Virus record (IMG/VR): IMGVR_UViG_3300021255_000007
DNA from: a virus
Length of the DNA stretch: 28,646 bases
Direction: 5' to 3' (one strand)
Positions 1 through 28,646 of the stretch are shown one piece after another. Within the stretch, counting starts at the first letter, position 1. Each line of letters starts with the position of its first letter. The notes below the pieces were generated by a model that worked only from the letters and a program-made list of their open reading frames with translations, was not told the origin of the DNA and ran no database searches. Made by a program: the position numbers and the translations under genes.

Positions 1-107
1 GACGAACAGAAGGCCCAGATGCAAACGGCCACGGGGTACGGACTCGATGAAGAGGAACGATATAGCGGTGCTGGTATCTCAGACGATGGTACTGGATCGG
101 TTTGGGG
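1..107. repeat. Left copy of a 107-bp terminal direct repeat (circular-closure overlap of the contig)
   Basis: Bases 1..107 match 28540..28646 base for base. The repeat lies inside an open reading frame, so it marks an arbitrary opening of a circular or terminally redundant assembly, not a physical end. Confidence 0.9.
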
Positions 108-8117: not shown

Positions 8118-10699
8118 GAGATATCAACCTTGGAAGAGTAACAGCTTACGCGGACGCAGTAGCAGCCGGGTACACCGGAACGCGGGAACAGTTTGCGGTT
8201 GATCTGGCCAACGCGGCGACTTATGCCGGAGAAGCCGGAGCGAGCGCAGAAGCAGCGGCAGCCAGTGAGACGGCGGCGGCAAACAGCGCAGAAGCCGCAG
8301 AGGCAGCGGCGCAGGTAGCGGCAGGAGCGGAAGACAGCGTACACGCGGACGCTCTGGCGGCGCAGGAAGCCAAGGCGGCGGCGCAGGCATCTGAGGAGAC
8401 AGCAGTAAGCAAGGCCGGCGAAGCTGCCAACAGTGCCGACTCCGCGAGAAACAGCGCAAGCGCAGCGTCTTCCAGCGCGTCGGCGGCGGCTACCAGCGAG
8501 CAGAATGCTTCCGGATCCGCAACAGCGGCGGCGGGATCTGCTACGGCGGCGGCAGCCAGTGAGACGGCGGCAGCAGAATCCGCAGAGGAAGCAGCGGAAA
8601 GCCTGGGAGAGGTGCAGGCGGCTGAGACCTCCGCACTCACCAACATCGACACGGCAAAAACCACCGCCCTGTCTGAGATCCAGACCAAAGGAGAGGAAAC
8701 CCGGGCATCTATCCCGGCGGACTATACCGCCCTGAGCGATGACGTCAATGACTTAAAGAGCGATTTGGAAAAGTATGACAATCCGTTCGAAGAGACAATA
8801 CCTGGTTATACTAGTGGTATCATCGGTATCAGTATTATTGATCCTGCTGAATCTAATTACACGTCATATCGGATAAGTGCCATCAGAAAAAATTCGTCAT
8901 GGCACTGGTTTATGACATTACAAGGATATAACGGTACAGATTGGGTTAATATTGACAATATCGCAAGTCAATACAGTGCAGGCGCTGTTTATCCTATGGT
9001 TGAAACGCTTTTCTCAAATTATAACAAGTACGCTGTTGTCATAGACTGGAACTATGTACGAACAGAAGACATTTCAACATCCGGAATTACCGAGATTGTT
9101 CTGAAAAATACAGTTGTCAACAAACCGTTTGTCAATGCTCTGGTAAAAATCAACACTAACCAGACCGATATTGCGAACCTGACAACAAATGAACAGATGT
9201 ACAATAGTGTATTTTCCGTGCCTGTCAACAGTAACGCACTTGGAATTGTTGACATCAACCTTTATAATCCATCATTTACCAACTATGAGAAATACCGCAT
9301 AAACATTCTCAGGCATAACTCAAGTTATCATTTACATCTGGTATTACAGGGTTGTATCGGTGAAACATGGACGAATATTGATTCAATTCTCGTCCGTGCA
9401 GAGAACGCACCTGAACCATTGCCTGCTGTGGAAGTTCTTGATAGCACTTATCACAGATTTACTGTGACAATTATATGGGCAATGATGGGGACATTGACTT
9501 TAACTGGACTGGATTATCAGCTTAAAAACAGCATCGTCAATCGTACACAGATAGCCTTACAAACACGGGTTGAAGATATTTCTAATATTCCTTCATTCGA
9601 ACTTGCTGACCACATCAAACATGTTGTTACTGTCAAGCCTGACGGTACGGGGGACTATACGACTATTGCCGATGCCTATGCTGCAATAACAGACAGTGCA
9701 TGGGATAATCAATATGAAATCATTGTTTATCCTGGAACGTACAATGAAAACAATCTCCAGCCCCCTGCATATACTCATACGCATGGCATCTATCCTATGC
9801 AGACGATTGTTGACAGCAGTGGTTTGTTTGACCCAGAAAATCCTGATTTAAGTGTATTTGATCAGGGGCACGCACCATCTAAATTATCAAACATGGTAAT
9901 CAGATCTCAAACAAAATACTGTGTGCATCAGGATGTCGAGTTAAAGGGTGTAACGTTAGTCAACGAAAACTTGTACTGTATCAGATTGACAGGCGGCAGC
10001 AGCGAAACGTCAGTAATCGGGATCGGTGCTGATTTTGACGGTGCTAAATTTGTATGGAGAAACTGCACGTTTGTAAATGGAGCAGTGGCGGCACATACTA
10101 ATCCTAATAACTTGCCTAATGCAAATCAGCATATCATTTACGAGAACTGTATATTTGTTGACGCTTATGTGTCCCTAATGGTAGCAGGCATCGGAGGCGG
10201 CGCAAGTGGTAACACATTTGGAGAGTATGTGTGCGAAATTAAGGGATGCACAGTGAACGAGGGAAGATCTGGATTAAATTTGAAGTTTGGTTATCCTGTT
10301 AGCGGTATTGATGTCAATTTCCCCTGGCAGATTATTGGCGGAAATAATAACTTTGCGCCTGTGTTCAATAATTCGTCTGATACTAGTGCTGTTGATTTCT
10401 GGGACGCTATCAGCACAACAGATAAAACTTATGCTATTGCTGCTGAAACAATAGCAAAGGGAAGTTTTGTGGCATTTGACGGAACAAAGGCAACAAGCGC
10501 AACAGATACCAGTTTTATTGCCGGACTTGCTGTTTCTGATGGTGCGCAAAATGATAGGGTGCAAGTGTGGAAAGCGCCGTTTGTTTACACTGGAAACAAT
10601 GGCGAATACGGACTCGATGCAACAGGCAACTTAGATTCCGGAGCATCAAATAAAATAGGCAGAGTATTCAACAATATATTCTATCCGTTTTATGGCTGA
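8114..10699 (+). CDS. Tail fibre / receptor-binding protein: Ala-rich stalk, two tandem homologous domains, C-terminal parallel beta-helix (depolymerase-like) domain
   Basis: 861 aa. Residues ~40-200 form an Ala/Glu/Ser-rich stalk. Residues ~222-360 and ~361-490 are clearly homologous to each other. From 'VVTVKPDGTGDYTTIADAYAAI' onward there are periodic rungs: 'NMVIRS','NENLYCIRL','WRNCTFVNG','YENCIFVDA','IKGCTVNEG'. Confidence 0.75.
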   Translation: MRDINLGRVTAYADAVAAGYTGTREQFAVDLANAATYAGEAGASAEAAAASETAAANSAEAAEAAAQVAAGAEDSVHADALAAQEAKAAAQASEETAVSKAGEAANSADSARNSASAASSSASAAATSEQNASGSATAAAGSATAAAASETAAAESAEEAAESLGEVQAAETSALTNIDTAKTTALSEIQTKGEETRASIPADYTALSDDVNDLKSDLEKYDNPFEETIPGYTSGIIGISIIDPAESNYTSYRISAIRKNSSWHWFMTLQGYNGTDWVNIDNIASQYSAGAVYPMVETLFSNYNKYAVVIDWNYVRTEDISTSGITEIVLKNTVVNKPFVNALVKINTNQTDIANLTTNEQMYNSVFSVPVNSNALGIVDINLYNPSFTNYEKYRINILRHNSSYHLHLVLQGCIGETWTNIDSILVRAENAPEPLPAVEVLDSTYHRFTVTIIWAMMGTLTLTGLDYQLKNSIVNRTQIALQTRVEDISNIPSFELADHIKHVVTVKPDGTGDYTTIADAYAAITDSAWDNQYEIIVYPGTYNENNLQPPAYTHTHGIYPMQTIVDSSGLFDPENPDLSVFDQGHAPSKLSNMVIRSQTKYCVHQDVELKGVTLVNENLYCIRLTGGSSETSVIGIGADFDGAKFVWRNCTFVNGAVAAHTNPNNLPNANQHIIYENCIFVDAYVSLMVAGIGGGASGNTFGEYVCEIKGCTVNEGRSGLNLKFGYPVSGIDVNFPWQIIGGNNNFAPVFNNSSDTSAVDFWDAISTTDKTYAIAAETIAKGSFVAFDGTKATSATDTSFIAGLAVSDGAQNDRVQVWKAPFVYTGNNGEYGLDATGNLDSGASNKIGRVFNNIFYPFYG

Positions 10700-10789
10700 T
10701 TTTTCCAATGCTTAAAAGCACCATTTAAGAGACTTGACCATCTTGCTGGCATCAGCCAAAAGGTAGCAAGTTTGTAGCAAGTTGGTATC

Positions 10790-10817
10790 ATGTTCCCGGC
10801 AGAAATGTCGGGAACAT
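10790..10817 (+). terminator. Stem-loop downstream of the fibre gene (possible weak terminator)
   Basis: Perfect 9-bp inverted repeat ATGTTCCCG / CGGGAACAT with a 10-nt loop, followed by only TTT. Confidence 0.35.
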
Positions 10818-10960
10818 TTCACGCCCAGGCTTGCGTAAGATGCGGATCATCTACGCGAGCCCACGCAAATGATTGAGTCAACAACTTAGTCAAAAACCAT
10901 TAACTCAGTAAATGACGTGGATAATGACTTTGATAATGACTTGGATAATGAGGGGAAAAC

Positions 10961-11335
10961 ATGGAACAGATTCACTTTACGTCAGCCTATTGGCGGTTCC
11001 TGCTTCCGGCCTTTGCCGCCGGCGCGGACATCCTGACCGGACTCCTCCAGGCCGGTATAAACAACTGCTATAACAGCTCCGTCATGAGGAAGGGCCTCTA
11101 CCGCAAACTGGGAGAGCTGGCCTGCGTGGTCATGGCCTACGTGGTTTCTATCGGCGTGTCTCTGCCGGTGGACATAACCGCCTTCGTGGCCTTGTATATC
11201 GTGGTGATGGAGTTTATAAGCGTCCTGGAAAACCTCAGCGCTGCGGGGGTGCCGTTCCCGGTCTGGATCCTGCGGAAGCTTAAGAAGGCCGCCGATAAGC
11301 TGACGGAAGAGCCAAAGGAGGAGGGAACGGAATGA
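10961..11335 (+). CDS. Holin (phage_holin_4 / LL-H-like family)
   Basis: 124 aa with hydrophobic helices, an 'ADILTGLLQA' motif, 'MEFISVLENLSAAGVPFP', and a charged C-terminal tail. It sits directly upstream of the endolysin with an ATGA overlap. Confidence 0.8.
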   Translation: MEQIHFTSAYWRFLLPAFAAGADILTGLLQAGINNCYNSSVMRKGLYRKLGELACVVMAYVVSIGVSLPVDITAFVALYIVVMEFISVLENLSAAGVPFPVWILRKLKKAADKLTEEPKEEGTE

Positions 11336-12434: not shown

Positions 12435-12476
12435 GTGCTTTTTGATATCATCCATGTGGATAGGATCAAAAAACAC
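12435..12476. other. Candidate attP core for the serine integrase (imperfect 20-nt inverted arms around a central TG)
   Basis: GTGCTTTTTGATATCATCCA-TG-TGGATAGGATCAAAAAACAC. 16 of 20 arm positions are complementary and the central dinucleotide (12455..12456) is non-palindromic. It starts immediately after the int stop codon (12476..12478). Confidence 0.4.
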
Positions 12477-13792
12477 TATAAAAAAATGAGCTCAATGTGC
12501 CGGTCATCGAAGAACCGGATTTCCTTCAGGAGACCGCGCCACAGGTAACGGCGCTCCTGCATCGTGAGGGAGCTTATCAGGGTTCCGATGTCCTCAACGG
12601 CAAGGACTCCTTCCAGGGCGGAGGTGTCCGGCGGTGCCTCTTCGACATCCAGCGCCGCGAGCTCTCCCTCTAGTCCTTCTCGATCCTGGCGGTACTCCTC
12701 CAGTCCGATCAGCTCCGCAAGATATAACTCCTTCAGGCGGTCTATCTTTCTCTTGATAGCCGCCTTTTGCTTTTCCGTGTCCTTCTTCACCTCCTTTCTG
12801 GCCTGAGCCTCAACAATGACCTTTTCGGCTTCCTGCTTGACCTTGGCTATAAGGTACTCCTCTAGGACTGCCTCGCTGATTTGCTTTTTGTTTGTGCAGC
12901 GGCGCGGCGGCACGTAGTAGCACGGGCATCGGTATGTCGTGCGGTTGTGCGTAAAAACCGTGGCCATCCTGTGCCCGCATACACCGCACCGAAGGAGCCC
13001 GGTGAAAAGGTAATCCCTCTTTGCCGCTGCCGAAACGTTCATAGCGAGCTTCCGCTGTACATCCTCGAAAACGGCCTTGTCTATGATGGGCTCGCAGTAG
13101 TCTGAGTTTCCTCGATGCTCTCCGATATACTTCCGGTTCCGGAGTAGGCGCTTTAGGTTCTGCTTCTGACGCAACAGGCCAATGCGCTGACCGTACCGGG
13201 CGGCCTCGTTGAGGCTCCCACACTGGCAGTAGTAATCAAAGACCTTTCGGATGATTTCAGCCTTTTCCGGGACGACCACAAGGTGCTTGTCCTGGATCCG
13301 GTAGCCGAAGGGCACCTTGCCGGTCACGGCCTCACCCTGGGCAACTTTGTAGTCCATCACTGCGCGGATCCTGGCAGAGGTGTTTTCCGCCTCGAACTGG
13401 GCCACGCTCATCATCTGATTGACCACCAGACGCCCGGCGGGGGTGGTGGTGTCATAGATGGGCTCCCAGATTGCCAGCCATGTAACTCCGTACTTGTCAA
13501 GAACCTCCTGCGTGGCCGTGTAGTGCCGGATGGATCGAAACCAACGGTCAAGCTTTGTAAAGATTATCATGTCCACCTTGCCAGCCTTTATGTCATCGAT
13601 GAGCCTTTGCAGCTCCCCGCGCTCCTGGAACTTCCTGCCTGAAACCCCGTCGTCTATGTACTCCCCGGCGCTTATCATGTTGTCGTGCTCTTCCAGGTAC
13701 TTCCGCAGGGCGTCTCTCTGCGCTGGTACCGAGTCGCCTTCTTTTGCTTGGCGATCCGTGGAGACTCGGATATAGCAGGCTGTTTTTATCAC
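12476..13792 (-). CDS. int: Large serine recombinase (phage integrase)
   Basis: 438 aa with a GTG start. It has the N-terminal resolvase catalytic motif 'YIRVSTDRQ', a recombinase domain, the Cys cluster 'CGVCGHRM...YRCPCYY', and a C-terminal coiled coil. Confidence 0.9.
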   Translation of the reverse strand: MIKTACYIRVSTDRQAKEGDSVPAQRDALRKYLEEHDNMISAGEYIDDGVSGRKFQERGELQRLIDDIKAGKVDMIIFTKLDRWFRSIRHYTATQEVLDKYGVTWLAIWEPIYDTTTPAGRLVVNQMMSVAQFEAENTSARIRAVMDYKVAQGEAVTGKVPFGYRIQDKHLVVVPEKAEIIRKVFDYYCQCGSLNEAARYGQRIGLLRQKQNLKRLLRNRKYIGEHRGNSDYCEPIIDKAVFEDVQRKLAMNVSAAAKRDYLFTGLLRCGVCGHRMATVFTHNRTTYRCPCYYVPPRRCTNKKQISEAVLEEYLIAKVKQEAEKVIVEAQARKEVKKDTEKQKAAIKRKIDRLKELYLAELIGLEEYRQDREGLEGELAALDVEEAPPDTSALEGVLAVEDIGTLISSLTMQERRYLWRGLLKEIRFFDDRHIELIFL

Positions 13793-14256
13793 CTCTTGCC
13801 CACCTCCTTACACATGGCGTCGTAACTATTCAGCTTTCTTAGTAAGTTCACGAGAAGTATTAAGTTTTCTGAGGACGCCCTTTCCGCGAGATTTTTTAGT
13901 TTCTCAAGAAAATACTCTTTGTCCTCTTCGTTGAGTAGTTCACCATAGTCTGACGGGTCGTCTTTTCCGTCATACATCTCTGGTGGCATCGTCGAATCTG
14001 CCATCGCGTCCTTCATATCAAGATATTTGTCCCAACTCTCCGGAGACACGCCTTGGATTGGGGCGTCTTCTCCCATGATGGCCTCCAGTGGAACCTGGAA
14101 ATAGTCCGCGATAACTTGCAACTTTCCGACTTTCGGGGTGTATTTTCCCTGTTTCCAGGCCGTGAGCGTGGACGTAGTTACCCCGGTAGCTCTGGAGACT
14201 GTGCCGGGCTTAACTCCATGCTCTTCGCACAGCTTAATAAAGTTCTCGTAAAACAT
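13789..14256 (-). CDS. CI-like repressor (XRE-family HTH)
   Basis: 155 aa with N-terminal HTH 'VSRATGVTTSTLTAWKQGKYTPKVGKLQVIADYF'. It is divergent from a Cro-like gene. Its stop overlaps the int GTG (GTGA). No S24 peptidase motifs are visible in the C-terminal half. Confidence 0.75.
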   Translation of the reverse strand: MFYENFIKLCEEHGVKPGTVSRATGVTTSTLTAWKQGKYTPKVGKLQVIADYFQVPLEAIMGEDAPIQGVSPESWDKYLDMKDAMADSTMPPEMYDGKDDPSDYGELLNEEDKEYFLEKLKNLAERASSENLILLVNLLRKLNSYDAMCKEVGKR

Positions 14257-14419
14257 GCCGACCTCCTAAGAAAAACTAAGATTTATTAGTTGACAAACTA
14301 AGAAAACTGTGCTATCTTCTCAGGGAAGCGCAGGAAACTTAGTTATTGAGTTGATGAGTTTGTTTTCTGAGGTAATTATATAAGGTTTCTTAGCGTCCGT
14401 CAAGAAGGAAGGTGATACG
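14257..14419. promoter_or_regulatory. Lysis-lysogeny switch region with repeated operator-like half-sites
   Basis: CTAAGAAA occurs at 14266 and 14298 (+) and as TTTCTTAG at 14387. A variant, AAACTTAGTT, is at 14334. The region lies between divergent HTH genes. Confidence 0.6.
14290..14318 (+). promoter_or_regulatory. Sigma-A-type early rightward promoter candidate
   Basis: TTGACA (14290..14295), a 17-nt spacer containing an operator half-site, then TATCTT (14313..14318). It lies upstream of the Cro-like gene. Confidence 0.5.
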
Positions 14420-14605
14420 TTGTATAAACGTTTTGAGGAATTGATAGAAGAGAAGAACATTACGCCTTACAAGGTGGCGAAGGAAACGGGGATCAGTACA
14501 GCGACTATATCAAGCTGGAAACAAGGTAAGTACACCCCAAAGGTGGATAAGCTACTTAAGATTGCAGACTACCTCGAATGTGACGTGATGGAGCTGTTGC
14601 GATGA
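14420..14605 (+). CDS. Cro-like XRE-family HTH regulator
   Basis: 61 aa. TTG start after RBS GAAGGAAGGTG. The HTH 'VAKETGISTATISSWKQGKYTPKVDKLLKIADYL' is a close paralogue of the repressor HTH. Confidence 0.75.
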   Translation: MYKRFEELIEEKNITPYKVAKETGISTATISSWKQGKYTPKVDKLLKIADYLECDVMELLR

Positions 14606-14730
14606 ATACGAAGCTACTCTTTGAACTGCTTGGGGAGATCCTGAGCCGGAAATATCAAGCAGATGTCACTGTGAAGCCGGCGGGAGGAAATGATGAAAAG
14701 GGAAAATCTGAGGATCATCGGATCGCATGA
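14602..14730 (+). CDS. Small hypothetical ORF (42 aa)
   Basis: ATG overlaps the Cro-like stop (ATGA). It is below the track size cut-off and was translated by hand: MNTKLLFELLGEILSRKYQADVTVKPAGGNDEKGKSEDHRIA. Confidence 0.3.
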   Translation: MNTKLLFELLGEILSRKYQADVTVKPAGGNDEKGKSEDHRIA

Positions 14731-15010
14731 GGAGAAGGCCGTGCCGACGGGAAAGTACACCGTCACCAGGTACGGCAACAAGAAACCGGTCACCAAGCTA
14801 GAGACCTGGGTAAAAACCCCGTGCGGATCTATGAGGTTGTCAGTTTGGAAAACGCTCTACCGTGAGGCGCTGGAGGAAGAAGGGCAGCTTGATCTTCTGG
14901 AAAAGGTCATTGACCAGGTGAAACGGCTTCCCTTCGTAGATGATCCGGAGCTCTACGCGATGGAGTGCATTGATTGCGGCGCATACCTTTCCTGGGATGC
15001 CACCCAGTGA
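14690..15010 (+). CDS. Hypothetical protein (106 aa)
   Basis: ORF on the early-operon strand, with GGGAGGAA just upstream of tandem ATGs. No recognisable motifs apart from a C-terminal 'CIDCG'. Confidence 0.5.
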   Translation: MMKRENLRIIGSHEEKAVPTGKYTVTRYGNKKPVTKLETWVKTPCGSMRLSVWKTLYREALEEEGQLDLLEKVIDQVKRLPFVDDPELYAMECIDCGAYLSWDATQ

Positions 15011-15024
15011 GAAGGTTCCTATTT

Positions 15025-15042
15025 GCTGACTCATGTGTCAGC
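15025..15042 (+). terminator. Short hairpin after ORF 14690..15010 (weak terminator candidate)
   Basis: GCTGAC-tcatgt-GTCAGC followed by 'ctcctttc'. Confidence 0.3.
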
Positions 15043-15184
15043 CTCCTTTCGCCCTCTAGGTTTGAACCTGACTAAAGGGGTGCCCATCACACTCCGGAGG
15101 GTTTAGTGCCCCAGGCGGCACGGCGCTAGGCTGGATTGATGCGCATAACAAAAGAGACCCAGCAGGGGGAACCCACCCCCTAAA

Positions 15185-15257
15185 GGTGACGTAGCTCAGT
15201 GGTTGGAGCGGCGGCCTTATAAGCCGTGCGACGGCGGTTCGAATCCGTCCGCCACCA
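15185..15257 (+). tRNA. tRNA with anticodon UAU (predicted tRNA-Ile decoding AUA)
   Basis: Hand-folded 73-nt cloverleaf. Acceptor stem is GGTGACG/CGCCACC, with one A:C mismatch at 5:68. It has U8, D arm GCTC-AGTGGTTG-GAGC, anticodon stem GCGGC/GCCGT, loop C-U-UAU-A-A, variable loop GCGAC, T arm GGCGG-TTCGAAT-CCGTC, and discriminator A. CCA is not encoded. Confidence 0.75.
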
Positions 15258-15298: not shown

Positions 15299-15487
15299 AT
15301 GAAAACAGAATTGTACTACATGCCCCAGGGACGGGGCAAGGCGGGACGGATCAGCGTAGAACAGCGCCAGTACGAGATGGCAATGCAGAACTTTCATGAG
15401 AGTCTGAAGACCGAACTGAAGTGCTGCGCGTGTCTCCTTGGCGGGATGTTGGTCAGTGCCGCCGCTTTTATTTTTGCCTTATGGTAA
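15299..15487 (+). CDS. Small membrane-anchored hypothetical protein (62 aa)
   Basis: ATG at 15299 is preceded by RBS GCAGGAGGAAC. The C-terminal hydrophobic segment is 'CCACLLGGMLVSAAAFIFALW'. The track's longer ORF (from 15203) runs through the tRNA and was trimmed. Confidence 0.5.
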   Translation: MKTELYYMPQGRGKAGRISVEQRQYEMAMQNFHESLKTELKCCACLLGGMLVSAAAFIFALW

Positions 15488-18296: not shown

Positions 18297-18963
18297 AATA
18301 TACTTCATGGCGAGCTATTTCCGGTGCATTATCGGACTGGAGGGAGAAGTGTATGAGCGGATCAGCAAGGCGCTTCTCCGGTATATGTTCCTGGACGAGG
18401 AGCCGGAGCTTTCCCCTCTGGAAATGGCACTCTTTGAAGCGATGCGCTCGAACATCGACAAATCAAAAGAAATCATGGTGAAGCGCTGCGAAAGCGGAAG
18501 GAAAGGAGGAAAAGCAAACAGAGGACAAACCGAAGCAAACCACGAGCAAATGGAAGCAAATGGAAGCAAAACCAAAGCAAACGGAACCGACAAAGACATA
18601 GACAAAGACATAGACATAGACAAAGACAAAGACGGTGACGTAGACAAAGACGTAGACAGAGAAGAAGACAAAGACAAAAAGCAGCGCTTCCGCGCCGAGG
18701 ATGAAATAAAGGATCCCGAAGTGTTGGAAGCGTGGAAGGCCTTTGTTGAGTCCAGACGGAAGAATCGCAAGGCGATGACCAACAACGCTGAAAGATTGAT
18801 GGTCAAAAAACTCTTTAGCCTGGCGTCGGATGCCTTTGGGGAGCTTGACGCCGGGAAGGCAGTCAGGATCCTGGAGGCGGCGGTCATGAACTCGTGGACA
18901 GGTCTGTATGATCCGGACGAAAAGAAGAGCAGCAACAAGGCGATTGACTGGGATGCTGTTTAG
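18277..18963 (+). CDS. Putative replication initiation / replisome organiser protein with an internal Asp/Lys repeat
   Basis: 228 aa. The N-terminal region ends in 'SGRKGGKANRG' and the C-terminal region is 'WKAFVESRRKNRKAMT...NSWTGLY'. These resemble phage replication organiser and DnaD-like proteins from memory. The central 'DKDIDKDIDIDKDKDGDVDKDVD' is encoded by tandem DNA repeats. Confidence 0.4.
   Translation: METVRDRIYFMASYFRCIIGLEGEVYERISKALLRYMFLDEEPELSPLEMALFEAMRSNIDKSKEIMVKRCESGRKGGKANRGQTEANHEQMEANGSKTKANGTDKDIDKDIDIDKDKDGDVDKDVDREEDKDKKQRFRAEDEIKDPEVLEAWKAFVESRRKNRKAMTNNAERLMVKKLFSLASDAFGELDAGKAVRILEAAVMNSWTGLYDPDEKKSSNKAIDWDAV
18514..18678. repeat. Iteron-like tandem repeats (six phased GCAAA motifs, then about 15 GACNNN units)
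   Basis: GCAAA begins at 18514, 18535, 18546, 18556, 18566 and 18577, giving spacings of 21, 11, 10, 10 and 11 nt. From 18589 to 18678 the hexamer pattern GAC-AAA/ATA/GTA repeats. Confidence 0.6.
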
Positions 18964-23036: not shown

Positions 23037-24752
23037 ATGGTGAAAAACAATTATATTTTCGACTACTACCAGAGAATTAAGACCGGGACGGTCGTAGTTG
23101 GGAAGTGGATACAACTGCTATATGGGTTTTTGATAACTGGCCTCGAAAAAGGCCGGTTTTTTTTCGACCAAAAAAAGGCGAACCACGCAATAGACTGGAT
23201 CGAAGCCCATTGCTTCCACACGGAAGGGCCGCTTGCTCCTGGGCCGCTCCTTTTGGAGCTCTGGCAAAAGTCTCTCGTCTCCATCATCTTCGGGATCGTG
23301 GACAAGGACGGCAAGAGGGTCTTCCGGGAGGTGCTTTTTGTGGTAGCCAGGAAGAACGGCAAGAGTCTCTTGTGTGCTGCCATAGCGAAATATATCTGGA
23401 TGGTTGAAGGCGGATATGGCGCAAAGGTCTTCTGCCTCGCTCCGAAGCTGGAACAGGCTGACATCATCTACATGAATACGTGGCTCATGACTACGCTGGA
23501 TCCGGAATATATAGCGCTGAAAGAGCTGTGCTCCAAGAAAGACGCGCATAACAAGAAAGTAAACGACGACTCGGAACTCCCAAAGAAAAGACAGAGCGAT
23601 CTGTATATCGCGGCGACAAACTGCGCCGTGAAGAAGATCACCTTTTCCTCGAAGAGATCCGACGGTTTTAATCCGTCTCTCTGTATCTGCGACGAAATAG
23701 CCGCGTGGGAAGGTGATCGGGGCCTGAAACAGTATGAAGTCATGAAGTCAGGTATGGGAGGCAGGCCGGAGCCGCTTCTGATTTCCTGCACTACTTCCGG
23801 GTATGTGAATGACAGCATTTTCGACGAGCTCATAAAGAGAGGGACGCGGTTCTTACTTGGCGACTCCAAGGAGAGCCGGCTGCTGCCGGTGCTCTACATG
23901 ATAGACGACGTAGATAAGTGGGACGACATCAACGAGCTTCGAAAGAGCAACCCGAACCTTGGCGTTTCCGTCACGGTGGACTATCTGGTAGAGGAGGCGG
24001 CGGTTGCCTCTGGCAGCCTGTCGAAAAAAGCGGAATTCATTACAAAATACTGCAATCTGAAACAGAACTCTTCCCTTGCCTGGCTGCCGGCGAAGGTCGT
24101 GGAGGGCGCCGTGTGCGACCACTTGAATCTGGAAGACTTCCGTGGCTGTTACTGCGTGGGCGGCATCGACCTGTCGCAAACCCGCGACCTTACGTCTGCC
24201 TGCATCGTGATACAGAAGGAGGAAAAGCTGTATGTTATCTCTCACTTCTGGCTGCCGGCGGAAAAGATTGACGAGGCGACGGAGCGGGACGGACTGCCTT
24301 ATAACGCCTATATAGCCAGGGGGTTGTTGACGCCCTGCGGGGAGAATTTCGTGGATTACGAGGCGGTCTATGAATGGTTCCGGATCATCGTGGAGAAGTA
24401 TGAGATATTGCCGCTGAAGGTAGGCTATGACCGCTACTCCAGCCAGTACCTTGTACAGAAAATGCAGGGGTACGGCTTCCACATGGATGACGTTTTCCAG
24501 GGTGAAAACCTGTGGGGCGTTCTCCAGGAGGTGCAGGGCTACCTCGAAGATGGCCGGATCTGCATCGGGGACAACGACCTCCTTAAGGTGCACCTGTTGG
24601 ACAGCGCCATAAAAATGAGCACGGAGAGAGGCAGGGGGAAACTGGTAAAACTAAGACCCTCTTCACACATAGACGGCACCGCCGCCCTTGCGGATGCCTT
24701 TACAGTCAGACAGAAATATTGGGCAGAAATCGGAGAACAACTAGCGAGGTAA
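23037..24752 (+). CDS. terL: Terminase large subunit (Terminase_1 / HK97-phi105 type)
   Basis: 571 aa. It has a Walker A-like 'VVARKNGKS', 'LCICDEIAAW' (Walker B/coupling), and a C-terminal nuclease region 'GGIDLSQTRDLTS'. Confidence 0.9.
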   Translation: MVKNNYIFDYYQRIKTGTVVVGKWIQLLYGFLITGLEKGRFFFDQKKANHAIDWIEAHCFHTEGPLAPGPLLLELWQKSLVSIIFGIVDKDGKRVFREVLFVVARKNGKSLLCAAIAKYIWMVEGGYGAKVFCLAPKLEQADIIYMNTWLMTTLDPEYIALKELCSKKDAHNKKVNDDSELPKKRQSDLYIAATNCAVKKITFSSKRSDGFNPSLCICDEIAAWEGDRGLKQYEVMKSGMGGRPEPLLISCTTSGYVNDSIFDELIKRGTRFLLGDSKESRLLPVLYMIDDVDKWDDINELRKSNPNLGVSVTVDYLVEEAAVASGSLSKKAEFITKYCNLKQNSSLAWLPAKVVEGAVCDHLNLEDFRGCYCVGGIDLSQTRDLTSACIVIQKEEKLYVISHFWLPAEKIDEATERDGLPYNAYIARGLLTPCGENFVDYEAVYEWFRIIVEKYEILPLKVGYDRYSSQYLVQKMQGYGFHMDDVFQGENLWGVLQEVQGYLEDGRICIGDNDLLKVHLLDSAIKMSTERGRGKLVKLRPSSHIDGTAALADAFTVRQKYWAEIGEQLAR

Positions 24753-26544: not shown

Positions 26545-27684
26545 ATGGAATTAGAAAAAATGACCATTGAACAGCTTGAAGAGAAGAGAAGCGAGCTGAA
26601 GGCCAAGATTGAGGAGCCTGAGGCAGATCTTGACGCGCTCACCGAAGAGGTTCGGGCCGTGGTCGCTGAGATCGAGAAGAGAAAGGCGGAGGAAGCCAAG
26701 CGCGTAGAGCTGCGGAAGAACGTGGCCGCCGGCGCTGGCTCCGTCGTGGAGAAGATGAAAGAGGAGAACAGAAACATGCCTACCTTAGAAGAGATCCGGA
26801 AGAGTCCGGGGTATGTGAACGCTTACGCTAACTACATCAAGACCGGCGACGACAAAGAGTGCCGTGCGCTGCTTTCCACCAATGTCACCGGCGGACAGGT
26901 GCCGGTGCCTACCATGATCGAGGGCCGGGTAAAAACCGCCTGGGAGAGATCTGACCTCATGACCAGGGTGAGAAAGACCTATATCCGGGGCAACCTTCAG
27001 GTTGGCTTCGAGCTCTCCGCTGAGGGCGCTCTTATCCACACCGAGGGCGCTGCCGCCGGCAAGGAGGAGGCGCTGACCTTCGGCATCGTCTCCCTCACCC
27101 CGCAGAGCATCAAGAAATGGATCACCATTTCCGACGAGGCTATGGACATGGGCGGCGAGGAGTTCCTGAACTACATCTATGACGAGGTTACTTACCAGAT
27201 CGCCAAGAAGGCCGAGGCCGTGGTGCTTGACAAGATCAAGGCACTGACCGCCAGCGCAACCAGCACCGCCGTAAGCGTTGGCGTGGTTGCCGGTACCCCT
27301 ACCGTCGGAATTGTCGCCACTGCGCTGTCTATGCTCTCTGACGAGGCTGCCGACCCTGTTGTAGTCATCAACAAGCAGACCTACGCCGATTTCAAGGCCG
27401 CGCAGTATGCCAACAAGTTCAACGTGGATCCCTTCGAGGGGCTGCCTGTGCTCTTCAATAACAGCCTTCCAGTCTACTCCACTTCCGGAACCGCCGGCGA
27501 CACCTGGATGATCGTCGGAGACTTCGGCCAGGGTGCACAGGCCAACTTCCCGAACGGTGACGAGATCACCCTGAAGTATGACGAGCTGAGCCTTGCGGAG
27601 AAGGATCTTGTTAAGATCGTGGGCCGTGAGTATGTGGGCATCGGCATCGTTGCCGACCGTGCCTTTACCAAGGTCACTTTCTAG
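26545..27684 (+). CDS. Major capsid protein (HK97 family) with an N-terminal coiled-coil delta domain
   Basis: 379 aa. It has a Glu/Lys-rich N-terminal ~75 aa scaffold-like region followed by an HK97-like core. It sits directly after the protease. Confidence 0.85.
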   Translation: MELEKMTIEQLEEKRSELKAKIEEPEADLDALTEEVRAVVAEIEKRKAEEAKRVELRKNVAAGAGSVVEKMKEENRNMPTLEEIRKSPGYVNAYANYIKTGDDKECRALLSTNVTGGQVPVPTMIEGRVKTAWERSDLMTRVRKTYIRGNLQVGFELSAEGALIHTEGAAAGKEEALTFGIVSLTPQSIKKWITISDEAMDMGGEEFLNYIYDEVTYQIAKKAEAVVLDKIKALTASATSTAVSVGVVAGTPTVGIVATALSMLSDEAADPVVVINKQTYADFKAAQYANKFNVDPFEGLPVLFNNSLPVYSTSGTAGDTWMIVGDFGQGAQANFPNGDEITLKYDELSLAEKDLVKIVGREYVGIGIVADRAFTKVTF

Positions 27685-28355: not shown

Positions 28356-28646
28356 TGTGTTTGATGACGAGCTTAAGGGGCTGATTTATGCAGCCGCGTC
28401 GGATCTCAGAATCGCCGGCATTTCCGGGGCGGATCCCACAACAGAGGATCCGCTGATTATCCGGGCAATAATCACCTACTGCAAGGCCCACTTCGGGCAG
28501 GCGGAGGAAGGAGAGTATGACCGGCTTAAGGCCTCGTATGACGAACAGAAGGCCCAGATGCAAACGGCCACGGGGTACGGACTCGATGAAGAGGAACGAT
28601 ATAGCGGTGCTGGTATCTCAGACGATGGTACTGGATCGGTTTGGGG
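28315..28646 (+). CDS. Head-tail connector (gp6-like 'DNA packaging' family), N-terminal part; continues at 1..129
   Basis: ATG 28315 follows GAGGAG. 'MLEKVKNALRITTNVFDDELKGLIYAAASDLRIAGI...IIRAIITYCKAHFG' is the typical pattern of this family. The frame is open to the window end. Confidence 0.7.
   Translation, partial: MLEKVKNALRITTNVFDDELKGLIYAAASDLRIAGISGADPTTEDPLIIRAIITYCKAHFGQAEEGEYDRLKASYDEQKAQMQTATGYGLDEEERYSGAGISDDGTGSVW
28540..28646. repeat. Right copy of the 107-bp terminal direct repeat
   Basis: Identical to 1..107. Confidence 0.9.

Follow-up and report, generated by a model that had tools for sequence, protein, structure and literature searches.

A temperate gut phage genome carries a single tRNA gene with an encoded UAU anticodon that may read AUA without lysidine

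Isoleucine tRNAs that have a UAU anticodon encoded in the gene and read AUA without lysidine have been described in Mycoplasma mobile, as tRNA-Ile(UAU), and in Bacillus subtilis, as tRNA-Ile1(UAU), a suppressor of a tilS deletion (PMC3575796, PMC3919564). In B. subtilis, a UAU tRNA allows normal growth without TilS, and the IleRS of this organism, which bears Arg at the site corresponding to W905 of the E. coli enzyme, charges the UAU suppressor well (PMC3919564). Arg is also found at the W905 site of M. mobile IleRS, and E. coli IleRS favours LAU over UAU 360-fold (PMC3575796). The tRNA gene described here comes from a phage window of 28,646 nucleotides (the whole stretch of DNA that was analysed, IMG/VR record IMGVR_UViG_3300021255_000007). 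Its product shares with the M. mobile and B. subtilis tRNAs the encoded UAU anticodon, a predicted lysidine-free reading of AUA, the elongator type, the discriminator A73 and an A37 in t6A context. However, those systems have either no TilS or an IleRS with Arg at the wobble-contact site, whereas the candidate host clades of the phage have TilS, tRNA-Ile2(CAU) and a Trp IleRS.

Among phages, the prophages of Latilactobacillus curvatus mostly carry an AUA-reading Ile tRNA, and ATA makes up 15.7% of their Ile codons against 4.3% in their TilS-positive hosts (PMC10688831). Like the window phage, they are temperate Firmicutes phages with a single AUA Ile tRNA, for which the same codon-compensation reading has been given; they differ in that seven of ten have the TilS-dependent CAU anticodon and one has UAU, and in that their hosts are known, whereas the host is inferred at clade level here (PMC10688831). 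Blautia phage Montmirail (ON453898) contains an annotated tRNA-Ile at 18649-18721 which, like the window tRNA, forms a plain cloverleaf some 73 nt long and has the anticodon arm GCGGCCUUAUAAGCCGU. The two tRNAs are 81% identical overall and 87.5% identical over positions 8-63, and they differ in the acceptor and T stems. Both phages are temperate gut phages and neither tRNA has an encoded CCA, but the two are otherwise unrelated at the DNA level; Montmirail also has a tRNA-Asn, and its tRNAs lie just upstream of the terminase, not in an early operon. Dulem virus 39 (PP511791) bears an unannotated copy of the UAU tRNA with the same anticodon arm. The subfamily with the anticodon stem CGGCC/GGCCG, to which the window tRNA belongs, was found in 20 IMG/VR contigs besides Montmirail and Dulem virus 39.

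A narrow pattern (CTTATAA, 13-14 nt, GTTCGAATC) retrieved at least 120 IMG/VR contigs, and ARAGORN called 115 tRNA(UAU) genes among the matched loci examined. In 27 of 82 loci, the UAU tRNA was the lone tRNA of the examined stretch. When phage UAU tRNAs were chosen regardless of their stem, the anticodon stems were very diverse (GGC/GCC in 2 of 69), which indicates that they have several origins. Plain UAU tRNAs are common in phages, and the window tRNA is an ordinary find. An earlier note on this DNA had called encoded UAU anticodons uncommon; this is true of bacteria, with none in 401 genomes of one order, and does not hold for phages. In large phage contigs (L083 at 486-558, L214 and others), the tRNA(UAU) stands in arrays of 18-22 tRNAs alongside tRNAs with the anticodon CTA (amber suppressor type, ARAGORN 'Pyl'). 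The same IMG/VR loci also include a tmRNA (contig L095, 673-985) and odd anticodons such as Ser(ACT) and Tyr(ATA).

ARAGORN found exactly one tRNA in the window and called it tRNA-Ile, with the anticodon tat at position 34 (Table 1). The same interval scored 64.7 bits against Rfam RF00005 (gathering score 29, E 4.1e-12) and aligned over model positions 1-71 of 71. This score lies inside the range of 43-78 bits given by bona fide tRNAs of seven bacterial genomes in the same search. The cloverleaf is full and has the conserved U8, A14, G18G19, U33 and G53-T54-T55-C56, with the D stem GCUC/GAGC, a variable loop of 5 nt and the T loop UUCGAAU. The only non-canonical pair flagged by the Rfam alignment is A5:C68 in the acceptor stem, and the discriminator A73 is followed by TTA, so that no CCA is encoded. 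The anticodon loop reads C32-U33-U34-A35-U36-A37-A38 and is able to pair with AUA only, apart from a weak pairing with AUG. In thermodynamic folding, the minimum free energy structure was near the cloverleaf; its stability was not above that of shuffled sequences (z = -0.22), and the support for a tRNA therefore rests on the covariance model. These results demonstrate a genuine, full-length phage-encoded tRNA with the anticodon UAU. The cloverleaf that the earlier note had folded by hand, with 73 nt, U8, a TTCGAAT T-loop, U33 and A37, was recovered at the same coordinates by both programs, with a score mid-range for genuine tRNAs. Its reading of UAU from the loop CTTATAA, its A:C mismatch at 5:68 and the missing CCA were likewise correct.

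The anticodon class is that of tRNA-Ile(UAU) ('Ile3'), with U34-A35-U36 in a 7-nt loop followed by A37-A38. Outside the anticodon, the isoleucine identity set of E. coli consists of A73, U12-A23, C4-G69 and C29-G41. From the E. coli determinants, the window tRNA has A35, U36, A37, A38, A73 and U12-A23, while the two minor ones, C4-G69 and C29-G41, are replaced by G4-C69 and G29-C41; tRNA-Ile1 and tRNA-Ile2 of the host order both have C4-G69 and C29-G41. The lysidine-dependent tRNA-Ile2(CAU) type was rejected, since position 34 is T in the gene and there is no C34 substrate for TilS. The body of the tRNA was compared with 92 distinct bacterial tRNA sequences of at most 79 nt (144 genes from three genomes) and about 460 phage tRNAs. 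Among the bacterial sequences, Arg(CCU), Arg(UCU) and Thr(UGU) were the most similar (0.70-0.79, according to the method used), and Ile(GAU) and Ile2(CAU) were near 0.61-0.62; this comparison assigns no isotype, Arg(UCU/CCU) being marginally ahead with Ile(GAU) and Ile2 close behind. The sequence is consistent with an isoleucine tRNA, this being the sole identity that the anticodon allows. Positions 1 and 72 form a G1-C72 pair, the 11:24 pair is C-G and the anticodon stem has G29-C41, G30-C40 and C31-G39. The marks of an initiator tRNA (a 1:72 mismatch, A11-U24 and three consecutive G-C pairs at 29-31:39-41) are all missing, and judged from these positions and its place in the genome the tRNA is an elongator, neither an initiator nor an att fragment.

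The window begins and ends with the same 107 bases, so that it represents a phage genome of about 28.5 kb that is complete and circularly closed. The window is the genome of a complete temperate siphophage. According to PHROG matches and the order of the ORFs, tail and fibre genes occupy 1-10.7 kb and lysis genes 10.9-12.1 kb, and the terminase gene lies at 23037 and is followed by the portal and capsid genes. The GC content drops from about 0.55 to 0.40-0.43 at 9001-11000, in the distal part of the fibre gene and in the spacer that precedes the holin gene. The tRNA gene lies in a rightward early operon in the order cro-like HTH gene, two small ORFs, tRNA, 62-aa ORF, Erf, NinB, SSB, replication initiator and helicase loader. 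Neither the 106-aa ORF upstream of the tRNA nor the 62-aa ORF downstream has a PHROG match, and among 5.8 billion proteins the former finds itself only. The distance from the early promoter to the tRNA is about 870 nt. No terminator-like site was found on the plus strand between them, and no plus-strand promoter-like site was found in 15011-15184, just upstream of the tRNA. From this arrangement, we infer that the tRNA would be co-transcribed with the earliest lytic genes from the early rightward promoter, and that it would be silent in the lysogen.

Table 1. Features of the window that bear on the tRNA gene.
Feature	Coordinates	Strand	Basis
Direct terminal repeat, 107 bp, identical to 28540-28646	1-107		Exact match
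Large serine integrase, marks the phage as temperate; not adjoining the tRNA	12476-13792	-	phrog_95 integrase, E 7.5e-111
cI-like repressor, divergent from the early operon	13789-14256	-	PHROG transcriptional regulator/repressor families; promoter-like site 14403-14375 (-)
Sigma-70-like early rightward promoter: TTGACA, 17-nt spacer, TG-TATCTT	14290-14318	+	Promoter scan, 10/12 matches, extended -10
cro-like HTH gene of 61 aa, opening the early lytic operon	14420-14605	+	ORF list, translation; HTH segment similar to the one in the divergent repressor
Orphan ORF of 106 aa, just upstream of the tRNA	14690-15010	+	ORF list
tRNA gene, 73 nt, elongator type, UAU (Ile, AUA)	15185-15257	+	ARAGORN; Rfam RF00005; sequence
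Anticodon loop CUUAUAA; U34-A35-U36 at 15218-15220; A37-A38, t6A37 sequence context	15216-15222	+	Sequence; Rfam alignment
Small ORF, 62 aa, AGGAGG ribosome-binding site, directly downstream of the tRNA	15299-15487	+	Sequence; ORF list

Relatives of the phage were searched for a counterpart of the tRNA. None was found at this position in 80 Erf relatives, 26 genomic terminase relatives and 80 viral terminase relatives, and no tRNA was found in 794 kb of relatives. The eight relatives estimated to be at least 90% complete likewise had no tRNA above threshold. Whole-record searches of 14 relatives gave a single sub-threshold hit, a tRNA-Lys-like 3' fragment of 24 bits (L431, G409:C1:18208-18281, minus strand) whose loop is CTTTTAA (Lys UUU) and which has a CCA end and a good T arm but lacks a D arm. 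It sits in a complete 26.6-kb terminase relative and is probably an attP-type tRNA fragment that does not decode AUA. In an Acutalibacteraceae MAG, one terminase relative contains, about 1.1 kb upstream of its terminase gene, a CAT-anticodon tRNA (L122, 8824-8899), which could be either a TilS-dependent Ile2-type AUA decoder or a Met tRNA. An exact pattern made of the 5' half and the anticodon arm of the window tRNA had no match in IMG/VR, and none in metagenome contigs even when any base was allowed at anticodon positions 34-35. Neither a near-identical copy nor a donor tRNA came to light in these scans.

The 35 curated genes of the phage use 135 ATA, 90 ATT and 237 ATC codons. ATA thus amounts to 15.9 per 1000 codons and 29% of Ile at 54% GC. 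ATA/ATT stands at 1.5, whereas A3/T3 in four-fold families is 0.78, showing that ATA is not avoided, which is unusual at this GC content. The frequency is 18.8 per 1000 in early genes, individual ones being as high as 20-45, and 14.5 per 1000 in late genes. ATA is absent from the major capsid gene at 26545-27684 (0 of 22 Ile codons) and from the genes at 345-758 (0 of 4) and 1077-1649 (0 of 10), both virion genes. Even with the phage tRNA, the genes of highest expression still seem to disfavour ATA. The examples of ATA codons quoted in the earlier note are correct, as codons 9-11 of the tape-measure gene read ACG-ATA-CAG and the fibre gene has exactly six ATA codons in frame within 8790-9560. 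The low-GC part of the fibre gene has 11 ATA codons, a frequency not above that of the genome overall.

In 27 TerL relatives with a GC content of 0.52-0.60, none of which had a tRNA in the stretches covered, ATA made up on average 13.6% of Ile (SD 4.3, maximum 23%). With the method used for these relatives, the window phage reached 27%, the highest value among relatives of similar GC. A complete relative without a tRNA above threshold (G409/L415) nevertheless uses 15.8 ATA per 1000, which shows that the tRNA is not needed for such ATA use. ATA use was also compared between 52 IMG/VR carriers of a UAU tRNA and 103 non-carriers, a comparison that mixes unrelated hosts. GC-corrected ATA was not higher in the carriers, the residual (-0.22, p 0.06) pointing in the opposite direction.

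Among representatives of 185,579 species, the closest prophage terminase, 71% identical, was found in an Oscillospiraceae MAG from cattle duodenum, and the remaining matches were in ruminant or gut Clostridia MAGs and a few evidently mis-binned ones. The closest terminase relatives in IMG/VR were 72% identical. The host can be named only at clade level, as probable gut or rumen Clostridia, and the contrast between phage and host given here is one between the phage and clade representatives that carry related prophages. G001 (55.5% GC) has 7.0 ATA per 1000 codons (12% of Ile, ATA/ATT 0.44), the complete genome G040 (54.9% GC) has 8.3 per 1000 (14.5% of Ile) and G003 (59% GC) has 4.4 per 1000 (8% of Ile); the complete genome G014, of 43.6% GC, has 27.9 per 1000 (34.5% of Ile). 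Host-clade genomes of similar GC thus range overall from 4.4 to 8.3 per 1000 and from 8 to 14.5% of Ile, and ATA is roughly twice as frequent in the phage as in these clade genomes, taken to represent its probable hosts, and as in its tRNA-less relatives.

AUA decoding in the host clades is canonical, by TilS and a CAU tRNA. TilS was above the curated cut-off in all five genomes that hold related prophages. The two complete genomes, G014 and G040, which belong to the order of the closest match, have 59 tRNAs each, of which three have the anticodon CAU and three or four GAU, whereas UAU is absent; the three CAU tRNAs are of the initiator, elongator Met and Ile2 types. A pattern for a UAU anticodon loop at the correct distance from a canonical T loop gave 10 matches across 401 genomes from the order to which the closest host-clade genome belongs, no more than a reversed-pattern control, and none was a tRNA. 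With CAU in the same pattern, 53 of 61 genomes were matched, mostly by the conserved tRNA-Ile2 signature, which makes the negative result for UAU meaningful. A comparison of the phage's ATA use with the host and its TilS and tRNA complement had been proposed at the outset, and on clade representatives it was favourable at similar GC (15.9 against 4.4-8.3 per 1000) and as to TilS; the representative of 43.6% GC has 27.9 per 1000. In the Oscillospiraceae MAG G001 (L140-L158), ARAGORN calls extend three bases beyond the Rfam matches, and most tRNA genes of this MAG appear to encode the CCA end.

The IleRS proteins of G001, G014 and G040 are of bacterial type 1 and have the motif C-x-R-C-W, the Trp of which corresponds to E. 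coli W905 (PMC3575796). The IleRS frames in the Shuttleworthella-labelled MAG (L347, G003) and in an Acutalibacteraceae MAG (L349, G004) are 1127 and 1053 aa long and have no C-terminal C-x-x-C-W. They may represent the type 2 enzyme, which is eukaryote-like and could respond differently to a UAU anticodon.

Taken together, these features make it fairly probable that the gene encodes a functional elongator tRNA that gives the phage extra, TilS-independent AUA decoding early in the lytic cycle. Upon infection or induction, the tRNA would be transcribed within the early rightward operon, from the promoter through the cro-like gene and the two small ORFs to the tRNA and on into the genes for recombination and replication. 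Its excision from the transcript would fall to host RNase P and an enzyme that processes the 3' end. As it has no encoded CCA, it would depend on the host CCA-adding enzyme, which would append the CCA end. The tRNA would then receive t6A37 and be charged by the host IleRS. In this form, it could supplement a small host supply of AUA decoder, namely the product of a single tRNA-Ile2(CAU) gene that is active only after TilS has converted C34 to lysidine; the phage tRNA would need no TilS step because U34 pairs directly with A. The analysis establishes the gene with its structure and position, the high ATA use of the phage and the canonical decoding system of the host-clade genomes, and from there we infer transcription from the early promoter, processing, isoleucine charging and a benefit to phage translation. 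The earlier note had suggested that the tRNA could offset a decoding limitation of the host. In support of this proposal, the tRNA is real and ATA is about twice as frequent in the phage as in host-clade genomes of similar GC; against it, carriage of a UAU tRNA has no GC-corrected link to ATA use, and the tRNA-less relative G409 has equal ATA use.

These last two points also speak for a rather unlikely alternative, in which the tRNA is a near-neutral passenger that was picked up by recombination and is perhaps transcribed, but is poorly charged by a Trp-type IleRS and has little effect on translation. The tRNA is unique to this phage among about 80 terminase and 80 Erf relatives, the ORFs that flank it are orphans, the acceptor stem has a mismatch and two minor Ile determinants are missing. 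Moreover, the Trp in the IleRS of the host clades disfavours U34 (PMC3575796). A near-neutral passenger fits less well with an Rfam score that is mid-range for genuine tRNAs and with the intact state of all universally conserved positions. The recurrence of plain UAU tRNAs in at least 120 phage contigs, often as the lone tRNA of the stretch, argues for selection on the class, and the window phage has the top ATA fraction among relatives of similar GC.

If the host IleRS is indeed of the Trp type and does reject U34, such phage tRNAs would need compensating identity elements through which a canonical IleRS could charge them. One might generalize that plain UAU tRNAs are a phage-typical means of TilS-independent AUA decoding and that the conserved stem CGGCC/GGCCG of the gut and rumen subfamily is one candidate for such an element, maybe inherited from tRNA-Arg(UCU) by a one-base shift; we consider this extended proposal distinctly doubtful.

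It is quite improbable that the tRNA serves as an insurance by which AUA decoding is kept up when host tRNA-Ile2 or its modification by TilS becomes depleted, falls victim to a nuclease of a defence system or is switched off during infection. For other isoacceptors, there are documented phage tRNAs that escape anticodon nucleases. A UAU loop would escape an activity that recognises lysidine or a CAU loop, the tRNA is TilS-free with an anticodon and a body unlike the conserved host tRNA-Ile2, and it would belong to the earliest lytic transcript. However, no defence system directed against tRNA-Ile2 or TilS is known to us, and no nuclease or counter-defence gene was recognised beside the tRNA by PHROG. 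Replacement of tRNAs has been proposed for large virulent phages, which a temperate phage of 28 kb with one tRNA does not resemble.

An origin from tRNA-Arg(UCU) by a C35A change, with maybe non-Ile charging or ambiguous decoding that includes misreading of AUG through an unmodified U34, is highly improbable as an account of what the tRNA does. The anticodon arm, CGGCCUU[C/A]UAAGCCG, differs from that of Lachnospiraceae tRNA-Arg(UCU) at position 35 only. The best bacterial body matches are tRNA-Arg(UCU) and tRNA-Arg(CCU), at 0.78-0.79 against 0.62-0.67 for tRNA-Ile(GAU), and BLAST neighbours among GenBank phages are mostly tRNA-Arg genes. Nevertheless, other classes trail only slightly (mean 0.72 against 0.70), most of the difference is due to the 5-bp anticodon stem, and the diversity of stems among phage UAU tRNAs speaks for several origins of the class. 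ArgRS relies on A20 and C35 as determinants. The window tRNA has A35 in place of C35, and its D loop, AGUGGUUG, has U20, in contrast to AGCUGGAUA in host tRNA-Arg(UCU); with both determinants missing, arginine charging is unlikely and the gene was not classed as tRNA-Arg(UCU).

Finally, an initiator-type UAU tRNA for AUA starts, or a copy of a host tRNA at an att site, for which the temperate phage with its integrase would speak, is barely credible and already contradicted by the features of the gene, as no initiator mark is present and none of the 38 plus-strand genes checked needs an ATA start (ATG 27, TTG 8, GTG 3, with a Shine-Dalgarno sequence in 27). A tRNA copy at an att site is partial, usually of the 3' part, and adjoins the integrase, whereas this tRNA is complete, the repressor separates it from the serine integrase, 1.4 kb away, and none of the bacterial genomes searched contains a near-identical counterpart.

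The gene is best annotated as tRNA-Ile(UAU), with no sign of an altered genetic code, of AUA initiation or of an integration site. It adds a clean example to the known pattern in which a phage carries a tRNA for a codon that it uses more than its host does. The case is instructive in that the phage has the UAU solution and the likely host clades all keep lysidine, with TilS and a CAU tRNA, and in that the IleRS of G001, G014 and G040 carries the residue by which the E. coli enzyme discriminates against U34. Specialists might wish to pursue how charging of a plain UAU tRNA is achieved by an IleRS whose Trp disfavours U34. If such tRNAs are charged efficiently, they could show how the identity requirements of IleRS are met without lysidine or G34, which would be useful for the reassignment of AUA codons.
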